From: a virus
Lineage: Duplodnaviria > Heunggongvirae > Uroviricota > Caudoviricetes
DNA: 47,714 nt
Reading direction: 5' to 3' (one strand)
IMG/VR virus record: IMGVR_UViG_2541047681_000007
The notes beneath the pieces are model-generated. The model worked only from the letters and a program-made list of their open reading frames with translations. It had not been told where the DNA came from and ran no database searches. Both the position numbers and the translations under genes were made by a program. Each line of letters starts with the position of its first letter. Within the stretch, counting starts at the first letter, position 1. Shown in pieces: positions 3,039 through 43,568 of this stretch.

Positions 3039-3857
<819 letters not shown>

Positions 3858-38041: not shown

Positions 38042-38389
38042 GACCGACCTCTATTTCCCTGAATTTACGACGAAACTGTTCGAGCGGGCTGAAGCACTCA
38101 TGCTCATAGCCTTCACGGAGGTAGATAACCCGTTGTGTTTCCGGCTCCCAACGAATGACTCTGACGGGCACTCCGTAGTGATCTTTGAACCAGCGGTTAA
38201 CTTGTCGCAAAGGACTGTCTCCTTCTGCCGGTTGAAATCCCCCACAGCCCACTCAGCAAAGCTGTGGGTTACAATTTCCCTGTCACCTGGTACATTTACT
38301 GCATAGCAATACTCCACCTTCGCTTTTCCACCCGGTACAGGAAGCGCAATCAGTTGCGAGCGACGGTAGTGTGTTGTTAAACTGTTCAT
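38031..38389 (-). pseudogene. Small early gene split between two frames at a G5 homopolymer (frameshifted)
   Basis: frame A (38051..38389, [10 protein letters not shown]...AEWAVG) and frame B (38031..38252, ...[36 protein letters not shown]...) join at minus-strand GGGGG run (38239..38243). Confidence 0.4.
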
Positions 38390-38943
38390 GCGTTAGTTTC
38401 TCCACAACCAGAAGCAATCGACGCCACGACGCCCGGAGCTGCACACTCGCGGGCGTCATTACTTTCTGAAACGCAAAAAATTTTGTAGACAAGTGCTGCA
38501 TGCTCCTGCAGCTTCGAAATTGAGAGGTACAGCTCGTCGTTAATTGCTGTCTTCTCATGCGGTTCCACTACACCGTCTTCGATTGCCGAACGAATCTGTT
38601 TTGAATAACTGCCGATCTGTTCAATGACTTCCAGTAAACGCTGGTTAATATCGGCATTGTCCACATCCTCGACGTCAGGAAGAGACACAAAGACGCCATT
38701 TGCAGACTGCGCCACAGCGTCAGCAATGAAGTGAGTGCCACCAGCACGTTGTAAAATCATTGCCCATCCCAGCGGGAAAATCTGATCGCCATCGGCACGA
38801 AGGCGGTTAAATAATGCGTTCTCTGTTACATCCAGCCACTCAGCAGCTTCAGCGTAACCCCCCGGCAACGCCGCGATAGTTTTTCTGACAGCTTTCACGT
38901 ACCACTCAGGCTGTTTTTCCACTTTCCAGTGATGATTACCCAC
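38386..38943 (-). CDS. CII-like regulatory protein (phage 186 CII/CP76-type)
   Basis: 185 aa immediately downstream of cro; pattern ...[29 protein letters not shown]... resembles CP76-type CII proteins. Confidence 0.5.
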
Positions 38944-39196
38944 GGCTTACCTCCTGTTTCTGTGGTTTAAACCCATTCTGGTTTTGGCTAGATTGAAAAC
39001 GTGCCGGATAAAGAATCTGCATTTCGCTGATTTCACCCTTAAAAAAATTGGCCAGACGTTCTGCAAGATCGATAGATGGAATTTGTTCCAGTCTTTCAAT
39101 ACGACTCAGCGTCGCTGGATTGACCTGAACGCCAGCAGCAACATGCTGCAAAGTAAATCCGTGCGCCTTACGCACATTCCGTAATGGTGATTGCAT
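38936..39196 (-). CDS. cro: Cro-like HTH repressor
   Basis: 86 aa XRE-type HTH (GFTLQHVAAGVQVNPATLSRIERLEQIPSIDLAERLANFF), divergent from cI, GGAGG 6 nt upstream. Confidence 0.7.
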   Translation of the reverse strand: MQSPLRNVRKAHGFTLQHVAAGVQVNPATLSRIERLEQIPSIDLAERLANFFKGEISEMQILYPARFQSSQNQNGFKPQKQEVSRG

Positions 39197-39293
39197 ATGA
39201 CCTCCACATATTGCGTGATGAGCATATTATTTCGCGCAAATATTTTGCGCAAGTTGATTTGCTTAACGCGCAATAAAGAAATGTAATAAACGC
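39197..39293. promoter_or_regulatory. Immunity region: divergent pR / pRM promoters with three operator sites
   Basis: operator-like TTGC-N7-GCAA sites TTGCGTGATGAGCAT (39211..39225), GCGCAAATATTTTGCGC (39234..39250), TTGCTTAACGCGCAA (39259..39273); pR -35 TTGCGC / -10 TAATAT on minus strand; pRM -35 TTGCTT, 17 bp spacer, -10 TGTAAT ending 7 nt before the cI ATG (leaderless cI mRNA as in lambda). Confidence 0.55.
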
Positions 39294-39986
39294 ATGAACA
39301 TAGGAAACCGAGTCAGACAACTTCGCCAGGCGAAGAACATGAAAATCGCCGATCTCGCTGAAGCAATAGGAGTGGATGCGGCGAATATCTCACGCCTGGA
39401 AACAGGTAAGCAGAAACAATTCACTGAACAAGCCCTGAGTAATATTGCCAAGAGCTTAGGTGTTGATATTGCTGATCTCTTTACCTCAGACTTCAAAAGT
39501 AATACTGTATGTAAAAACAGTATTAGTGAGGATGTTGCGCAGGTGAAGGATGTATTCCGTATTGAAATGCTGGATGTCAGTGCCAGTGCGGGAAATGGCC
39601 TTATCCAGGGCGGTGATGTCATTGATGTGATTCATGCCATTGAATACAGAACTGATAATGCTGTATCGATGTTTGGCGGACGGCCAGCCAATCACATTAA
39701 AGTTATCAACGTTCGTGGGGACAGTATGTGTCCAACCATTGAGCCAGGAGATCTCATCTTCGTTGATGTCAGTATCAATCAGTTTGATGGAGATGGTATC
39801 TATGTATTTGGTTTTGATGATAAAATTTATGTCAAACGACTGCAAATGATACCTGACAAACTACTGGTGATTTCTGATAACCAGATTTACCGTGAATGGG
39901 GAATTACCAGCGAAAATGAACACCGGTTTATGGTCTTTGGAAAGGTCTTAATCAGCCAGTCACAAACCCTTAAGCGACACAATTAA
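39294..39986 (+). CDS. cI: CI-type prophage repressor (HTH plus S24 LexA-like peptidase domain)
   Basis: N-terminal HTH (MKIADLAEAIGVDAANISRLETGKQ), C-terminal S24 domain with GDSM serine motif and downstream Lys (VKRL). Confidence 0.85.
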   Translation: MNIGNRVRQLRQAKNMKIADLAEAIGVDAANISRLETGKQKQFTEQALSNIAKSLGVDIADLFTSDFKSNTVCKNSISEDVAQVKDVFRIEMLDVSASAGNGLIQGGDVIDVIHAIEYRTDNAVSMFGGRPANHIKVINVRGDSMCPTIEPGDLIFVDVSINQFDGDGIYVFGFDDKIYVKRLQMIPDKLLVISDNQIYREWGITSENEHRFMVFGKVLISQSQTLKRHN

Positions 39987-40039
39987 CCCTTACCTCCTCA
40001 TCAATTAGCCACCCAAAGGTGGCTTTTCATTACCCTTTA

Positions 40040-40095
40040 AATTGCATATCTCGCAACAAAAACACTTGCATAATGCGCAACTTCATTTTATCTTT
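40040..40095 (+). promoter_or_regulatory. Putative pL promoter with OL operators
   Basis: two operator copies TTGCATATCTCGCAA (40042..40056) and TTGCATAATGCGCAA (40066..40080) matching the OR consensus, followed by a -10-like TATCTT. Confidence 0.5.
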
Positions 40096-40504
40096 CTTTC
40101 CAGACAAACAAACAAGGTACTAACAAAATTTGGTTGTAACACGGCGTATGGCACATGCGTCGTTAGCGGTCTGGGGACGTTAAAGGGGACAATCCACTCC
40201 TTGCTCGGGCAAACAAACCAGGTAGCCGGAATGTGCAAGTCAATGATGATGCTGATAAGACGCCTAACCAGCGTGGCGATTCGGTTTGACGCCTGGGAAG
40301 AGACCAGGGTGCAACGATGAGGGCATTTATGGAGCCGCGACAAAGTGTGGTGCCGTAACTGGCTAAGTGCTCTCAGCGTTGTGGTAATCCGCGAAATGGC
40401 GCGGCGGTAAGTATGGCGGGGTTACTCTTTCCCCGTTGAGGACACCGGATTGTCAGGTTGACCATACGCCTGAGTGACAACCCCACCACAACAGCCACTG
40501 CTTT

Positions 40505-40551
40505 GGCGGTACCAGTTTGTACCCTTGCTTCCGGCTGGTACCGCTCTTTTT
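40505..40551 (+). terminator. Intrinsic terminator in early-left leader
   Basis: perfect 10 bp inverted repeat GCGGTACCAG...CTGGTACCGC with 20 nt loop followed by TCTTTTT. Confidence 0.55.
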
Positions 40552-40688
40552 ACAAAACAGAGAAGAGCATCACCGGACGACGGGCTCATAACCCAATCCA
40601 TCCGGGCGGCTGCCACCGCAGGTGTTCTTCTCCGTTTTGTGGAGAAACCAACCGACCTTGCAGGGTCGATATGATGAGGAGCAGCAAA

Positions 40689-41051
40689 ATGGCTAGCGAA
40701 CGCAGTACTGATGTGCAGGCATTTATTGGGGAGCTGGACGGCGGCGTATTTGAAACCAAAATCGGCGCAGTTCTCAGTGAAGTCGCTTCCGGTGTGATGA
40801 ACACGAAAACCAAAGGTAAGGTCTCGCTCAACCTGGAAATCGAACCGTTTGATGAGAATCGTGTGAAAATCAAACACAAACTCTCGTATGTTCGCCCGAC
40901 TAACCGCGGGAAAATTTCCGAAGAAGACACCACCGAAACGCCGATGTATGTCAATCGCGGTGGTCGCCTGACTATTCTGCAGGAAGACCAGGGACAATTA
41001 CTGACTCTTGCCGGTGAACCTGACGGAAAACTCCGCGCAGCAGGTCATTAA
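40689..41051 (+). CDS. Early-left protein, YfdP-like
   Basis: 120 aa from ATG preceded by AGGAG (MASERSTDVQAFIGELDGG...); ORF track starts upstream at 40458; followed by YfdQ- and YfdR-like genes as in CPS-53-type prophages. Confidence 0.55.
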   Translation: MASERSTDVQAFIGELDGGVFETKIGAVLSEVASGVMNTKTKGKVSLNLEIEPFDENRVKIKHKLSYVRPTNRGKISEEDTTETPMYVNRGGRLTILQEDQGQLLTLAGEPDGKLRAAGH

Positions 41052-42593: not shown

Positions 42594-42701
42594 AAATCAG
42601 CACGTACGAATTCAAACTCTGCCATAAAAGAACATATAAGTAATTTATTAACATATAGATATAGGTTATATTACAAATTGAAAAATTATTGGAGAGCAAC
42701 A

Positions 42702-43568
42702 ATGAATCAAAATCCATTCTCATTCTATGACTTTCTTGGATATTTAATACCAGGTGGTTTTTTTATCCTATTAATGTATTTCTGTGGTTTGACATTCGAT
42801 CTAGATATTGTTATTGACTTAACTGAATTGCTCAGAGGTCAAAGTCAAATCTTTGGCATTTTGAACTACGCTTCAATAGTTATTATATCTTATATAGCTG
42901 GACATTTTATTTCTATCACGTCAGCATTTTTTATCGAAAAATACATGAATAAAGAATTAGGATATCCTTCCAAATATCTATTTAAAAAATTGATAGATAT
43001 CTCAGAAAGCATTTGTAGCCCATCATGCGATGAGAGAAGCGCTGATAAAAAAACAAAAATAAAGAATCGCATAATCAAATGCGTATTATGTCCGATAATA
43101 CTATGGGATTTTGCAACACAAAAACTATGTTATTCTCAATCTCTACCATTTCATTTAGCTAATACAACATGGTTAATGATCAAAGAAGGTTATGAGAAAA
43201 AGTTCATAACAAATCGCCAATTATTACAAGATAAAAACGGACTTGATGATGATCTCTTCAGATTGGCATATCATTATGTTTATGAGTTTTCAAAACAACA
43301 TCAAACAAAAATTCAAAACTATGTTGCATTATATGGTTTTTGCAGAAACATATGTTTAATCTTTATAATTTCATTTTGGGTATCAGTTCCAACCTTTATT
43401 TATCGGTTATGTACTCATAGTGATTATCTTTATAGTTTACTTTCAATAATGCTTAGCTTTTTCTTCGTCTATGTTTTCTATGTTGGTTTTGTTAAATTTT
43501 ATAGAAGATATACTTTAGAAGTATTAATGGCATTTGCTGTACTTCAAAGTAACGACACTATTCGTTAA
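42702..43568 (+). CDS. Hypothetical polytopic membrane protein, AT-rich moron
   Basis: 288 aa from ATG preceded by GGAGAG; multiple hydrophobic helices (LGYLIPGGFFILLMYFCGL, IFGILNYASIVIISYIAGHFISI, ICLIFIISFWVSVPTFIY, LLSIMLSFFFVYVFYVGFV); low GC; ORF track starts at 42678. Confidence 0.55.
   Translation: MNQNPFSFYDFLGYLIPGGFFILLMYFCGLTFDLDIVIDLTELLRGQSQIFGILNYASIVIISYIAGHFISITSAFFIEKYMNKELGYPSKYLFKKLIDISESICSPSCDERSADKKTKIKNRIIKCVLCPIILWDFATQKLCYSQSLPFHLANTTWLMIKEGYEKKFITNRQLLQDKNGLDDDLFRLAYHYVYEFSKQHQTKIQNYVALYGFCRNICLIFIISFWVSVPTFIYRLCTHSDYLYSLLSIMLSFFFVYVFYVGFVKFYRRYTLEVLMAFAVLQSNDTIR

Follow-up and report, generated by a model that had tools for sequence, protein, structure and literature searches.

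In phage lambda, the interval from OL/pL to the first early-left gene is occupied by the N/nutL leader, for which processing by RNase III is plausible, and T4 encodes the stable species 1 and 2 RNAs in its tRNA cluster. HK022, a lambdoid phage without an N protein, carries put, a promoter-proximal folded RNA of about 70 nt with two stems. Copies of put with a stem II signature in common occur in each of the two early operons. The dicBF operon of the Qin prophage in E. coli K-12 is an early-left-type operon with a CI/Cro-like switch, in which the terminator of the small RNA DicF is followed by protein genes. The 5' seed of DicF, UUUCUGGUGACG, serves for pairing with xylR, and its loop/3' region pairs with ftsZ and pykA. 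Much of the K-12 transcription stops at DicF, and terminated dicBF transcripts of 1146 nt occur alongside read-through transcripts of 1608 nt (PMC10448788). DicF occurs as a 190-nt RNase III product, an RNase E product and a 53-nt species and is bound by Hfq (PMC10448788, PMC5069750), and RNase III trims its 3' ends on the read-through RNA (PMC5069750).

We analysed a stretch of 47,714 nucleotides of phage DNA, referred to here as the window. Its immunity region consisted of a CII-like gene (38386-38943) and a cro-like HTH gene (38936-39196), both on the minus strand, and a cI-like gene with HTH and S24 peptidase domains (39294-39986, plus strand). The terminator scan detected an intrinsic terminator of cI at 40007..40028 on the plus strand (AGCCACCCAAAGGTGGCT then TTTTCATT), which ends the pRM transcript. 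OL contained two operator copies of the pattern TTGC-N7-GCAA, TTGCATATCTCGCAA and TTGCATAATGCGCAA (40042-40056 and 40066-40080), also recovered as the direct repeat D2, and a third copy was located in the cI/cro interval (39259-39273). The putative pL was placed at 40066..40094 on the plus strand (-35 TTGCAT, 17-nt spacer, -10 TATCTT), from which transcription would start near 40101. These hexamers were presumed from their position among the operators and match the consensus at just 7 of 12 positions, for which reason the promoter scan did not list the site. In phages with different immunity regions, similarity to the leader begins only at about 40113-40122, indicating that transcription starts upstream of this point.

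Composition and coding potential of the leader

The first-pass annotation of this DNA had described about 590 nt of relatively GC-rich, untranslated sequence between OL/pL and the first early-left gene. Indeed, the first gene (yfdP) starts at 40689, and the G+C content was 0.50-0.565 over 40100-40800 versus 0.385-0.415 over 39700-40199. The annotation had also treated the sequence as a single leader, which had to be revised. The interval 40101-40688 is a mosaic of conserved folded RNA modules, at least four in number and independently distributed, and not a plain leader; its homology, fold, covariation, strand specificity and non-coding nature were established in this analysis.

The leader shares the map position of the lambda N/nutL leader, and processing by RNase III is plausible here likewise. 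Unlike lambda, the window lacked an N-like ORF, an Arg-rich motif and, with up to two mismatches allowed, an rrn-type boxA, and small ORFs with an Arg-rich N-terminus were not detected anywhere in the 38-45 kb region. The previously claimed absence of an N-like gene was thus upheld, as none of the four ORFs in the interval had a Pfam match and none was a small Arg-rich ORF. The motif CGCUCUUUUUA on the 3' side of the terminator was considered as a boxA and dismissed, as the related types L152 and e14 have not kept it.

It is highly improbable that an overlooked small protein (an N analogue) is encoded in the interval or that the interval is decayed coding sequence. Open reading frames of 92, 86, 66 and 41 codons do exist in the interval, and hypothetical proteins are annotated there in some phage records, including 'ymfH' in e14. 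Nevertheless, besides the lack of Pfam matches and of an Arg-rich motif, homologues of the conserved core differed by frame-breaking indels of 1, 2 and 5 nt, the P1 copy had stop codons in all six frames, and the substitutions were compensatory in RNA helices. PGAP annotates no gene in the interval.

The RefSeq annotation is empty over the leader, and Rfam holds no model for the modules. The Rfam search suggested by the first-pass annotation was done on the window at the gathering thresholds and at E <= 10, and on four divergent homologues of the leader at E <= 1; within the leader, both gave chance matches only. ARAGORN detected no tRNA or tmRNA gene in the window, and the Rfam tRNA-clan, tmRNA and Y-RNA models found nothing in the leader; the flanking tRNAs in P1, phiV10-like phages and SPN1S were detected by ARAGORN/Rfam. 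The small RNAs AgvB/AsxR and Pas were inapplicable, being Rfam families or located in the late region. Full-text literature searches, run with the conserved stretches and on comparable RNAs of P1 or prophages, gave no match in the texts available.

Modules A and C and the junction hairpin

The core of module A spanned 40139..40312 on the plus strand and folded into a structured RNA of at least five helices with long invariant single-stranded stretches, for example CCAGGTAGCCGGAATGTGCAAG. The covariance model R2 detected it as a single copy in the pL operon (191 bits, E = 3e-50). When covariation was examined in 15 diverse homologues, 95.1% of the cells were paired and 37 double-change cells were counted, compared with 12.9 in shuffles and 0-7 in slid controls; the sequences of modules A and C are related phage copies, and the shuffle counts given here and below are not probabilities. 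In both modules many G-U pairs fitted the plus strand only. Module A, which is absent from Rfam, is a new and well-supported structured RNA in three unrelated phage types. Its invariant unpaired stretches reached 22 nt across P1, lambdoid and epsilon15-like phages; long stretches of this type, in module C as in module A, point to the binding of a conserved partner, for which a role as pure scaffold gives no explanation.

Module A always adjoined tRNAs or other RNA genes. In P1 (185 bits) it is located deep in the ban operon, in the spacer between tRNA-Ile and ban with no terminator before ban, and the similarity starts 2 nt past the CCA of tRNA-Ile. In the epsilon15-like phages it lies upstream of tRNA-Arg in a self-contained cassette of promoter, RNA and tRNA, in which its partners are rare-codon tRNAs; module A is found there just 3' of a promoter-like site, and about 40 nt past the inferred pL start in the window. 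Its adjacency to tRNA in P1 and the epsilon15-like phages likens module A to structured RNAs that are co-transcribed with phage tRNA genes or lie next to them, namely the T4 species 1 and 2 RNAs and the ornate phage RNAs ROOL and GOLLD (PMC12286853). Unlike ROOL and GOLLD, module A is enterobacterial and much smaller (about 170-250 nt), and it matched neither their sequences nor their Rfam models.

These surroundings raise the reading that modules A and C are stable trans-acting RNAs, such as tRNA-linked decoys, sponges or RNP components, directed at host RNases, the ribosome or tRNA-targeting defences, and that the DicF-like hairpin described below is merely a terminator. The ends of module A coincide with tRNA processing sites, namely 2 nt past the CCA of P1 tRNA-Ile and the +1 position in typing phage 10, so RNase P and tRNA 3' processing would release it. 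The rare-codon partners in the epsilon15-like cassette point in the same direction, as do the UCCUU-like (anti-Shine-Dalgarno-like) loops kept in the variable hairpins of both modules. We nevertheless consider this reading quite unlikely: the function is derived wholly from context, any binding partners are putative, and neither ARAGORN nor the Rfam tRNA, tmRNA and Y-RNA models recognised anything in the leader.

Module C was delimited at 40377..40494 on the plus strand and comprised the closing stem GUUGUGGU/ACCACAAC, the hairpin CCGCG/CGCGG, a variable hairpin with a UCCUU-like loop, a 9-bp hairpin (GGAUUGUCA/UGACAACCC) and the pseudoknot GUAUGG/CCAUAC. The covariance model R1 found it in the window as a single copy in the pL operon (139 bits, E = 3e-37). 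Among 24 sequences, 94.2% of the cells were paired and 16 pairs were double-changed, a level that none of 500 shuffles reached. The pseudoknot, scored independently of the model, was paired in 100% of cases with UA-to-CG and UG variants. A likeness of module C to loop C of 5S rRNA, seen by eye, found no support from the Rfam 5S model.

In the Qin prophage of K-12, module C was detected at L124:2500-2617 (144 bits), directly 5' of DicF (RF00039, L124:2633-2684). The 5' edge of module C, where a stem of about 24 bp has its foot, coincides with the RNase III-dependent 5' end of the 190-nt DicF. By sequence, module C can be identified as the 5' domain of this known RNase III-made species. The 190-nt DicF 'precursor' holds a conserved pseudoknotted domain that is found across Enterobacterales prophages and in P1, and this conservation suggests a role for the long form beyond that of a processing intermediate. 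The P1 copy (90 bits) extends from directly upstream of the annotated 'dicF-like region' into it and is followed by a terminator.

Modules A and C were separated in the window by the junction hairpin (40311..40384, plus strand), GCAACG-A-UGAGGGCA...UGCUCUCA-G-CGUUGU, with a folding energy of -35.4 kcal/mol (z = -3.1). In L019, SPN1S and F1055 the stem was kept and the inner part replaced, and in typing phage 10 the junction/extension hairpin abutted the +1 position of tRNA-Arg. By analogy with its K-12 counterpart, a stem of about 24 bp that ends where RNase III generates the 5' terminus of the 190-nt DicF, the junction hairpin is probably an RNase III site that parts module A from module C.

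The P1 ban operon likewise contains both modules in a repressor-controlled early operon. In P1, unlike the window, they lie 2.2 kb apart in reverse order with tRNAs and genes between them, and module C is followed by an ordinary terminator hairpin (GCCCA...TGGGC followed by a T run) that bears no relation to DicF.

The hairpin in the DicF position

The strong terminator reported earlier at 40505..40551 on the plus strand was confirmed by its fold and as an inverted repeat, with a folding energy of -21.2 kcal/mol (z = -3.26) matched by only one of 200 shuffles. The exact 10-bp arms GCGGTACCAG/CTGGTACCGC (40506-40515 and 40535-40544) extended to a stem of 13 bp (40505-40517/40533-40545) with a 15-nt loop, followed by UCUUUUU. 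As the loop of 15-19 nt exceeds the limit of 8 in the simple terminator scan, the scan had missed this element.

The base of the hairpin, GGCGG/CCGCC, and its U-tailed 3' end were as in DicF (GGCGGUACCAG...CUGGUACCGCU then CUUUUU). The terminator aligned with Qin DicF and with the e14 hairpin through the common stretch TTTGGCGGTAYCAGTTT, having 17 nt in common with DicF, and started 11 nt after module C in an arrangement like that of K-12 dicF. Judged from sequence and position, the terminator is a positional and partial sequence homologue of DicF and probably a DicF-family small RNA; it may act in trans.

The likeness to the Qin locus covers the early-left-type operon with a CI/Cro-like switch, the protein genes past the terminator, the 118-nt module C directly upstream of a GGCGG...CCGCC hairpin with a U run, and the long junction hairpin on the 5' side, where RNase III cuts in K-12. 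Unlike in Qin, where the locus follows ydfABC and dicB lies downstream, the window locus directly follows the promoter, has module A before it and module D after it, and leads into yfdPQR. The hairpin itself also differs from DicF in the loop, in a longer perfect stem and in the 5' single-stranded seed, which is deleted in the alignment. The DicF model RF00039 gave no match in the window at its gathering threshold (48 bits), nor at E <= 10 over 39950-40750. This model scored 76.7 bits on K-12 and 58.9 bits on the variant L147, and missed seven other DicF-position hairpins including the window type and e14; the tenth locus in this search, L011, was again of the window type. RNAduplex energies between the hairpin and ftsZ were no better than those of shuffles, a test without power, as genuine DicF behaved likewise.

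In all enterobacterial prophage variants, module C was followed by a GGCGG...CCGCC hairpin with a U run and of variable sequence. A variable loop on a covarying stem, as observed in these hairpins, is what a small RNA whose seed evolves would be expected to show. Since the DicF-position hairpin is hypervariable, prophages may carry a family of DicF-like small RNAs with differing targets that current models miss.

The constant adjacency of an intrinsic terminator to module C, with its compact pseudoknotted fold and highly conserved junction nucleotides, would also suit a riboswitch-like or factor-binding sensor that sets termination at the hairpin and thereby gates the early-left genes. We regard this as very unlikely. 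In 11 variants, module C had no conserved alternative (antiterminator) pairing with the terminator's 5' strand, the best duplexes failing to beat shuffles (z of -0.4 to +1.4), the linker between the two varied in length and sequence, the module C of K-12 persists within the stable 190-nt RNA, and no Rfam riboswitch family matched.

Antitermination, processing and downstream genes

The first-pass annotation had concluded that expression of the downstream genes needs antitermination, by an RNA like HK022 put or an unrecognised factor, or else that the region encodes a regulatory small RNA. The need for antitermination does not follow, because dicBF transcripts pass the DicF terminator without a known antiterminator, terminated and read-through forms coexisting (PMC10448788). 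Among the options, the regulatory small RNA gained support, since the terminator is a positional and partial sequence homologue of DicF and the preceding 118 nt are the element that makes up the 5' part of the 190-nt DicF in K-12. The put-like option did not stand. The leader resembles put as a promoter-proximal folded RNA in the early-left operon of a lambdoid phage without N protein, whereas none of the specific features of put was found: the best blastn matches between the leader and the HK022 pL/pR regions had E values of 0.33-1.2, compared with 2e-4 for the putL versus putR control, the stem II signature AGGAUGA...CAAUG had no match in the window, the folds differed and the pR side carried no copy. 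A 15-nt resemblance between helix 1 of module A and putL stem I was taken as chance, because its E value was about 1 and this stem is not conserved between putL and putR.

A polymerase resistant to the DicF-position terminator and to later ones could also arise if module A, module C or both folded on the nascent pL RNA and bound it, similarly in action to HK022 put or Bacillus EAR and unrelated to them. Such phages lack an N gene, and the same idea has been published (PMC12315714) for a related phage that likewise carries a yfdPQR early-left operon, LLS. The promoter-proximal position of module A in the window and in epsilon15-like phages, the terminator located always 10-35 nt past module C with genes or tRNAs beyond it (Qin, P1 and the window), and the invariant unpaired stretches, which suggest a conserved host partner, are consistent with this. 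It appeared unlikely nonetheless: nothing ties the modules to put (similarity of E about 1 at best, different size and fold), each phage has one copy and the pR operon has none, and in K-12 much transcription does end at DicF. Moreover, most module C loci lacked module A, indicating that module A is not generally required to pass the terminator, and the P1 module A lies after a tRNA, deep in an operon with no terminator before ban.

Stated more broadly, it is rather unlikely that module A, and possibly module C, are undescribed phage RNA families that act themselves on conserved host machinery. The most consequential version would be a new polymerase-bound class of antiterminator RNA replacing N in the large group of yfdPQR-type lambdoid prophages; the other would be a tRNA-linked RNA that tRNA-processing enzymes release and that is directed at RNases, translation or tRNA-targeting defences. 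If either were true, the copies in P1 and in K-12 Qin would have been overlooked for decades. The question of early-left expression in lambdoid phages without N, raised for LLS (PMC12315714), now has defined candidate elements.

We favoured, with a probability of roughly 55%, the interpretation of the interval as a polycistronic non-coding RNA locus transcribed from pL and built like the dicF part of the Qin dicBF operon. Upon loss of the repressor, transcription from about 40101 would yield module A, the junction hairpin, module C and the DicF-position hairpin in succession. A fraction of the polymerases would stop at this hairpin, giving a precursor with an Hfq/terminator-type small RNA at its 3' end. 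Cleavage by RNase III in the junction hairpin would then split off module A and leave module C plus the hairpin as a species of about 170-190 nt, the counterpart of the 190-nt DicF; RNase E may trim this species further. Other polymerases would read through into module D, whose long stem is a likely second RNase III site; its cleavage would trim the 3' end of the small RNA and give the yfdPQR mRNA its 5' end. Under this precursor model a dedicated N-type antiterminator would be unnecessary. Against the model count the absence of an RF00039 match, the missing DicF seed, the long invariant unpaired stretches of modules A and C, and the window terminator, which is stronger than that of DicF (-21.2 versus -16.2 kcal/mol), so that unaided read-through could be too low. 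Processing as in dicBF is proposed for the window prophage by analogy, and modules A and C may have roles beyond those of stable scaffolds or processing domains.

Module D, the structured 5' UTR of yfdP (40552..40688, plus strand), had a folding energy of -54.8 kcal/mol (z = -3.3). Its long stem (40552-40576/40616-40640, inverted repeat I1) begins right after the U run and is followed by an RBS-proximal hairpin (40653-40668) and the Shine-Dalgarno sequence GAGGAG (40676-40681). This module was common to e14 (where it is annotated as 'ymfH'), ST64B, F1055 and the Klebsiella phage Kp4866-6, and seven pairs held through double changes among 5-6 sequences. The first early-left protein gene, yfdP (40689..41051, plus strand), was assigned from the ORF list and the RefSeq annotation of identical DNA and belongs to no Pfam family; it is followed by yfdQ (DUF2303) and a yfdR-like HD phosphatase gene (Pfam YfbR-like).

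Among 5426 complete E. coli genomes, 1158 (about a fifth) carried at least 80% of the leader, and 4857 carried at least one of its modules. The scan of GTDB for module C gave 62 pattern matches, 17 of which were confirmed by the model, all in Enterobacterales or in likely contaminated MAGs.

Untranslated leader downstream of pL

The interval between pL and the first early-left protein gene is apparently a dicF-type RNA locus with at least one RNA family new to description. The window carries an immunity region of the lambdoid type, in which ORF and Pfam analyses identified genes for CII-like (38386-38943) and cro-like HTH (38936-39196) proteins on the minus strand and a cI-like repressor with HTH and S24 peptidase domains (39294-39986) on the plus strand, and the terminator scan placed a cI terminator at 40007-40024. 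Operator copies TTGC-N7-GCAA were located at 40042-40056 and 40066-40080, with a third copy between cI and cro. The putative promoter pL (-35 TTGCAT, -10 TATCTT, start near 40101) was placed by its position among the operators, as its hexamers are weak and were absent from the promoter-scan list. The next protein gene, yfdP, starts only at 40689, which leaves an untranslated stretch of about 590 nt; behind yfdP come yfdQ (DUF2303) and a gene for a yfdR-like HD phosphatase. The G+C content of this stretch was 0.50-0.565 when compared to 0.385-0.415 just upstream (39700-40199), in agreement with the first-pass annotation, which had described a GC-rich non-coding stretch of this size between OL/pL and the first early-left gene. 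The direct repeat CAAACAAACAAGGTA / CAAACAAACCAGGTA at 40105-40119 and 40210-40224, by which the start of the pL transcript duplicates a piece of the interior of module A, is possibly a recombination scar.

A small protein concealed in the interval is very unlikely. No Pfam family was found among the ORFs of the interval and no Arg-rich small ORF in the early region, bearing out the earlier claim that an N-like ORF is absent; indels of 1, 2 and 5 nt separate homologues of the conserved core, and stops interrupt all six frames of the P1 copy. The RefSeq annotation of the interval contains nothing, and the leader was present over at least 80% of its length in 1158 of 5426 complete E. coli genomes. 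In the e14 element of K-12 (L125 2363-2674), the annotated gene ymfH overlaps copies of the DicF-position hairpin and module D, and is probably not a protein gene. The blastn comparison with phage genomes showed that the parts of the interval differ in distribution, defining four modules.

Module C, the DicF-position terminator and module D

Module C (40377-40494) was identified by fold, covariation and the covariance model R1, the E-values of which, like those of the module A model R2, are approximate. In E. coli K-12 it lies between ydfC and dicB in the Qin prophage (L124:2500-2617), followed by DicF (RF00039, 76.7 bits) at L124:2633-2684. A stable 190-nt DicF species is made in K-12 (PMC10448788). 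Measured from the 3' end of DicF, 190 nt reach to within some 5 nt of the 5' boundary of module C; in K-12 this point lies at the base of a stem of about 24 bp that corresponds to the junction hairpin of the window. The 190-nt DicF is thus module C, a linker and DicF. The annotated 'dicF-like region' of P1 overlaps module C and not DicF itself.

Besides its closing stem, module C has three hairpins (one invariant, one variable with a UCCUU-like loop and one of 9 bp) and a pseudoknot (GUAUGG/CCAUAC). The leader had been described as structured, and the covariance analysis of 24 copies upheld this, with 94.2% of cells paired and 16 pairs kept through double changes, a number reached by 0 of 500 shuffles, although the homologues are related phage copies and shuffle statistics exaggerate significance; slid-partner controls and compensatory changes in several steps carry more weight. 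In the Izhakiella copy four successive pairs of the 9-bp hairpin were altered, and the pseudoknot was fully paired (100%), with UA replaced by UG or CG in variants, though it lay outside the search model. Among species-representative genomes, module C was confirmed in Enterobacterales only (Escherichia, Shigella, Citrobacter, Erwinia, Trabulsiella and Izhakiella, and also Serratia symbiotica), and blastn detected a copy in an Actinobacillus phage. Pyrimidine-rich, anti-Shine-Dalgarno-like UCCUU/CUCC loops on covarying stems occur in the variable hairpins of both modules A and C (40185-40196 and 40420-40428; alignments A5, A6), and the CUCUUU loop of module C could pair with the yfdP Shine-Dalgarno sequence GAGGAG (40676-40681).

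The strong terminator reported by the first-pass annotation at 40505-40551 was confirmed, having a 13-bp stem with exact 10-bp arms, UCUUUUU, -21.2 kcal/mol and z = -3.26. It occupies the same position as DicF and shares TTTGGCGGTAYCAGTTT with it, but lacks the 5' seed of DicF and has a different loop. Across prophages a hypervariable hairpin follows module C, with at least 10 sequence types; those of enterobacterial prophages retain a GGCGG/CCGCC base and the U run, and P1 types have another terminator (GCCCA...TGGGC and a T run). The Rfam DicF model recognised the K-12 type and one prophage variant, L147, but missed the types of the window and e14 and six further variants. A riboswitch-like switch is unlikely, as no conserved alternative pairing partner for the terminator was found.

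Module D (40552-40688; -54.8 kcal/mol, z = -3.3) is a structured 5' UTR, in which a stem of about 20 bp starts directly after the U run and a further hairpin adjoins the ribosome-binding site. It recurs, with compensatory changes at some of its pairs, in e14, ST64B, F1055 and a Klebsiella phage.

Module A and the antitermination readings

The core of module A (40139-40312, plus strand) was defined by blastn against phage genomes, fold and covariation. It directly follows the immunity region in the lambdoid phages mEp460, mEp390, cdtI and Stx2c phages, and in P1 the similarity begins 2 nt past the CCA of tRNA-Ile(CAU), upstream of ban. In the epsilon15-like phages phiV10, typing phage 10, SPN1S, PAT1 and Klebsiella ST512-KPC3phi13.3, a cassette of a promoter-like site, module A and tRNA-Arg(UCU) lies on the strand opposite to the neighbouring portal (head-tail adaptor) and terminase genes. 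The tRNA precedes module A in all P1-type copies and follows it in 32 of 33 phiV10-type copies.

Fifteen diverse copies supported five helices with 95.1% pairing, and double-changed cells numbered 37 compared with 12.9 in shuffles and 0-7 with partners slid, so that the structure ascribed to the leader held here as well. The fold is possible only on the plus strand, the direction of pL, because many pairs are G-U. Long unpaired stretches, such as CCAGGTAGCCGGAATGTGCAAG, are invariant, and variable hairpins retain UCCUU-like loops. Neither the window copy nor four divergent copies matched any Rfam 15 family. With boundaries coinciding with tRNA processing sites, module A would fit a stand-alone, tRNA-linked stable RNA.

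The first-pass annotation had raised an HK022 put-like RNA; as family membership this was rejected, since comparison with putL and putR gave no support and no such element was found on the pR side. Helix 1 of module A (ACGGCG..CATGCGTCG..AGCG, 40140-40175) resembles stem I of putL (ACGGCG..CATGCGTCGGGAGCG; L297 4070-4422, minus strand), a likeness probably due to chance, given a blastn E-value of about 1 and the lack of conservation of the stem in putR. An RNA antiterminator unrelated to put, an idea already raised for the related phage LLS (PMC12315714), would account for the unpaired stretches that never vary, the location of module A close to the promoter and the constant coupling of module C to a terminator; we consider it rather improbable, as module A is missing from most module C loci, follows a tRNA in P1 and faces no terminator there, and has no copy on the pR side.

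Junction hairpin, exchangeable modules and predicted processing

Modules A and C are independent: module A was present at a single one of about 95 further module C loci, K-12 has module C without module A, and P1 has both 2.2 kb apart. In the window they meet at the junction hairpin (40311-40384; -35.4 kcal/mol, z = -3.1), the interior of which is exchanged in other phages while the stem is retained. Its end coincides exactly with position +1 of tRNA-Arg in typing phage 10, and in epsilon15-like phages a tRNA with an acceptor stem starting GUGG takes the slot position after the hairpin. The slot GUUGUGG...CCACAAC is filled by module C or, in ST64B, Kp4866-6 and mEp460, by another module; the 815-nt leader of ST64B matched neither model R1 nor R2. 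Since slots interchange, modules are independent and isrK/C4 RNAs can follow, early operons look like arrays of swappable RNA genes with a recurrent junction hairpin between them.

The junction element, the 3' strand of the hairpin GTGC(T/G)CT.. followed by (C/G)GTTGTGG, recurs in different phages, separating RNA modules (window 40360-40384; L124 ~2480-2507; L233 ~1100-1135; L231 ~1105-1135; L003 ~3225-3245). It lies 5' of module C in the window and K-12 Qin, of module A in PAT1 and the Klebsiella ST512 phage, and of tRNA-Arg in typing phage 10, and in K-12 falls at the 5' end that RNase III gives the 190-nt DicF. The alternative slot module, GTGGTGAATGCGGCT.AGCGCACGCGG ... CACCACAAC within GTTGTGG...CCACAAC, occupies the place of module C in ST64B (L300 ~1310-1425), Kp4866-6 (L301 ~1245-1365) and mEp460 (L001 from ~3405), and Qin has a related sequence 3' of DicF (L124 ~2705-2745). 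Two T-loop-like hairpins (CTGGTTCGATTCCAG, GTCCGTTCAATTCGGAC), absent from the window, form an insert within the junction hairpin of SPN1S (L230 ~1300-1420), F1055 (L299 ~1395-1510), L301 (~1180-1295) and L090, a layout reminiscent of double T-loop modules that bind tRNA elbows. The isrK and C4 antisense RNAs (Rfam, above gathering) were detected in prophages with module C loci (L200 1171-1359; L172 4732-4920; L011 5052-5240), in L200 and L172 on the same strand just 3' of module C and its hairpin; at least four RNA genes are therefore possible in one early-left operon.

The homology, the folds and the lack of coding capacity were established here for the window, and processing has been demonstrated in K-12 alone; we infer K-12-type processing in the window prophage and any trans-acting role of the products. 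From homology with dicBF, pL would produce a polycistronic RNA precursor, with a fraction of polymerases terminating at 40546-40551 and the rest passing the terminator. RNase III cleavage of the junction hairpin would then free module A from a species of module C and its hairpin, and the DicF-position hairpin with its U tail would act as a DicF-family small RNA having another seed. RNase III probably has a second site in the long stem of module D; cleavage there would shorten the small RNA and give the yfdPQR mRNA its 5' end. In K-12 dicBF, terminated and read-through transcripts occur side by side with no known antiterminator (PMC10448788), and the DicF 3' end on read-through RNA is trimmed by RNase III (PMC5069750).

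DicF is known, as is its 190-nt form, and the P1 'dicF-like region' is annotated. In Rfam 15 and the literature open to search, we found no description of module A, of the junction element, or of module C as a conserved pseudoknotted domain, nor recognition of this widespread leader as a dicF-type locus. The sole Rfam family above gathering in the entire window was IS009 RNA (RF02111; 3970-4168, minus strand, 225 bits). An ORF of 296 codons (42678-43568, plus strand) between the yfdR-like gene and xis/int, membrane-like and with 27-30% G+C, resembles a moron (accessory gene cassette) gained by horizontal transfer.
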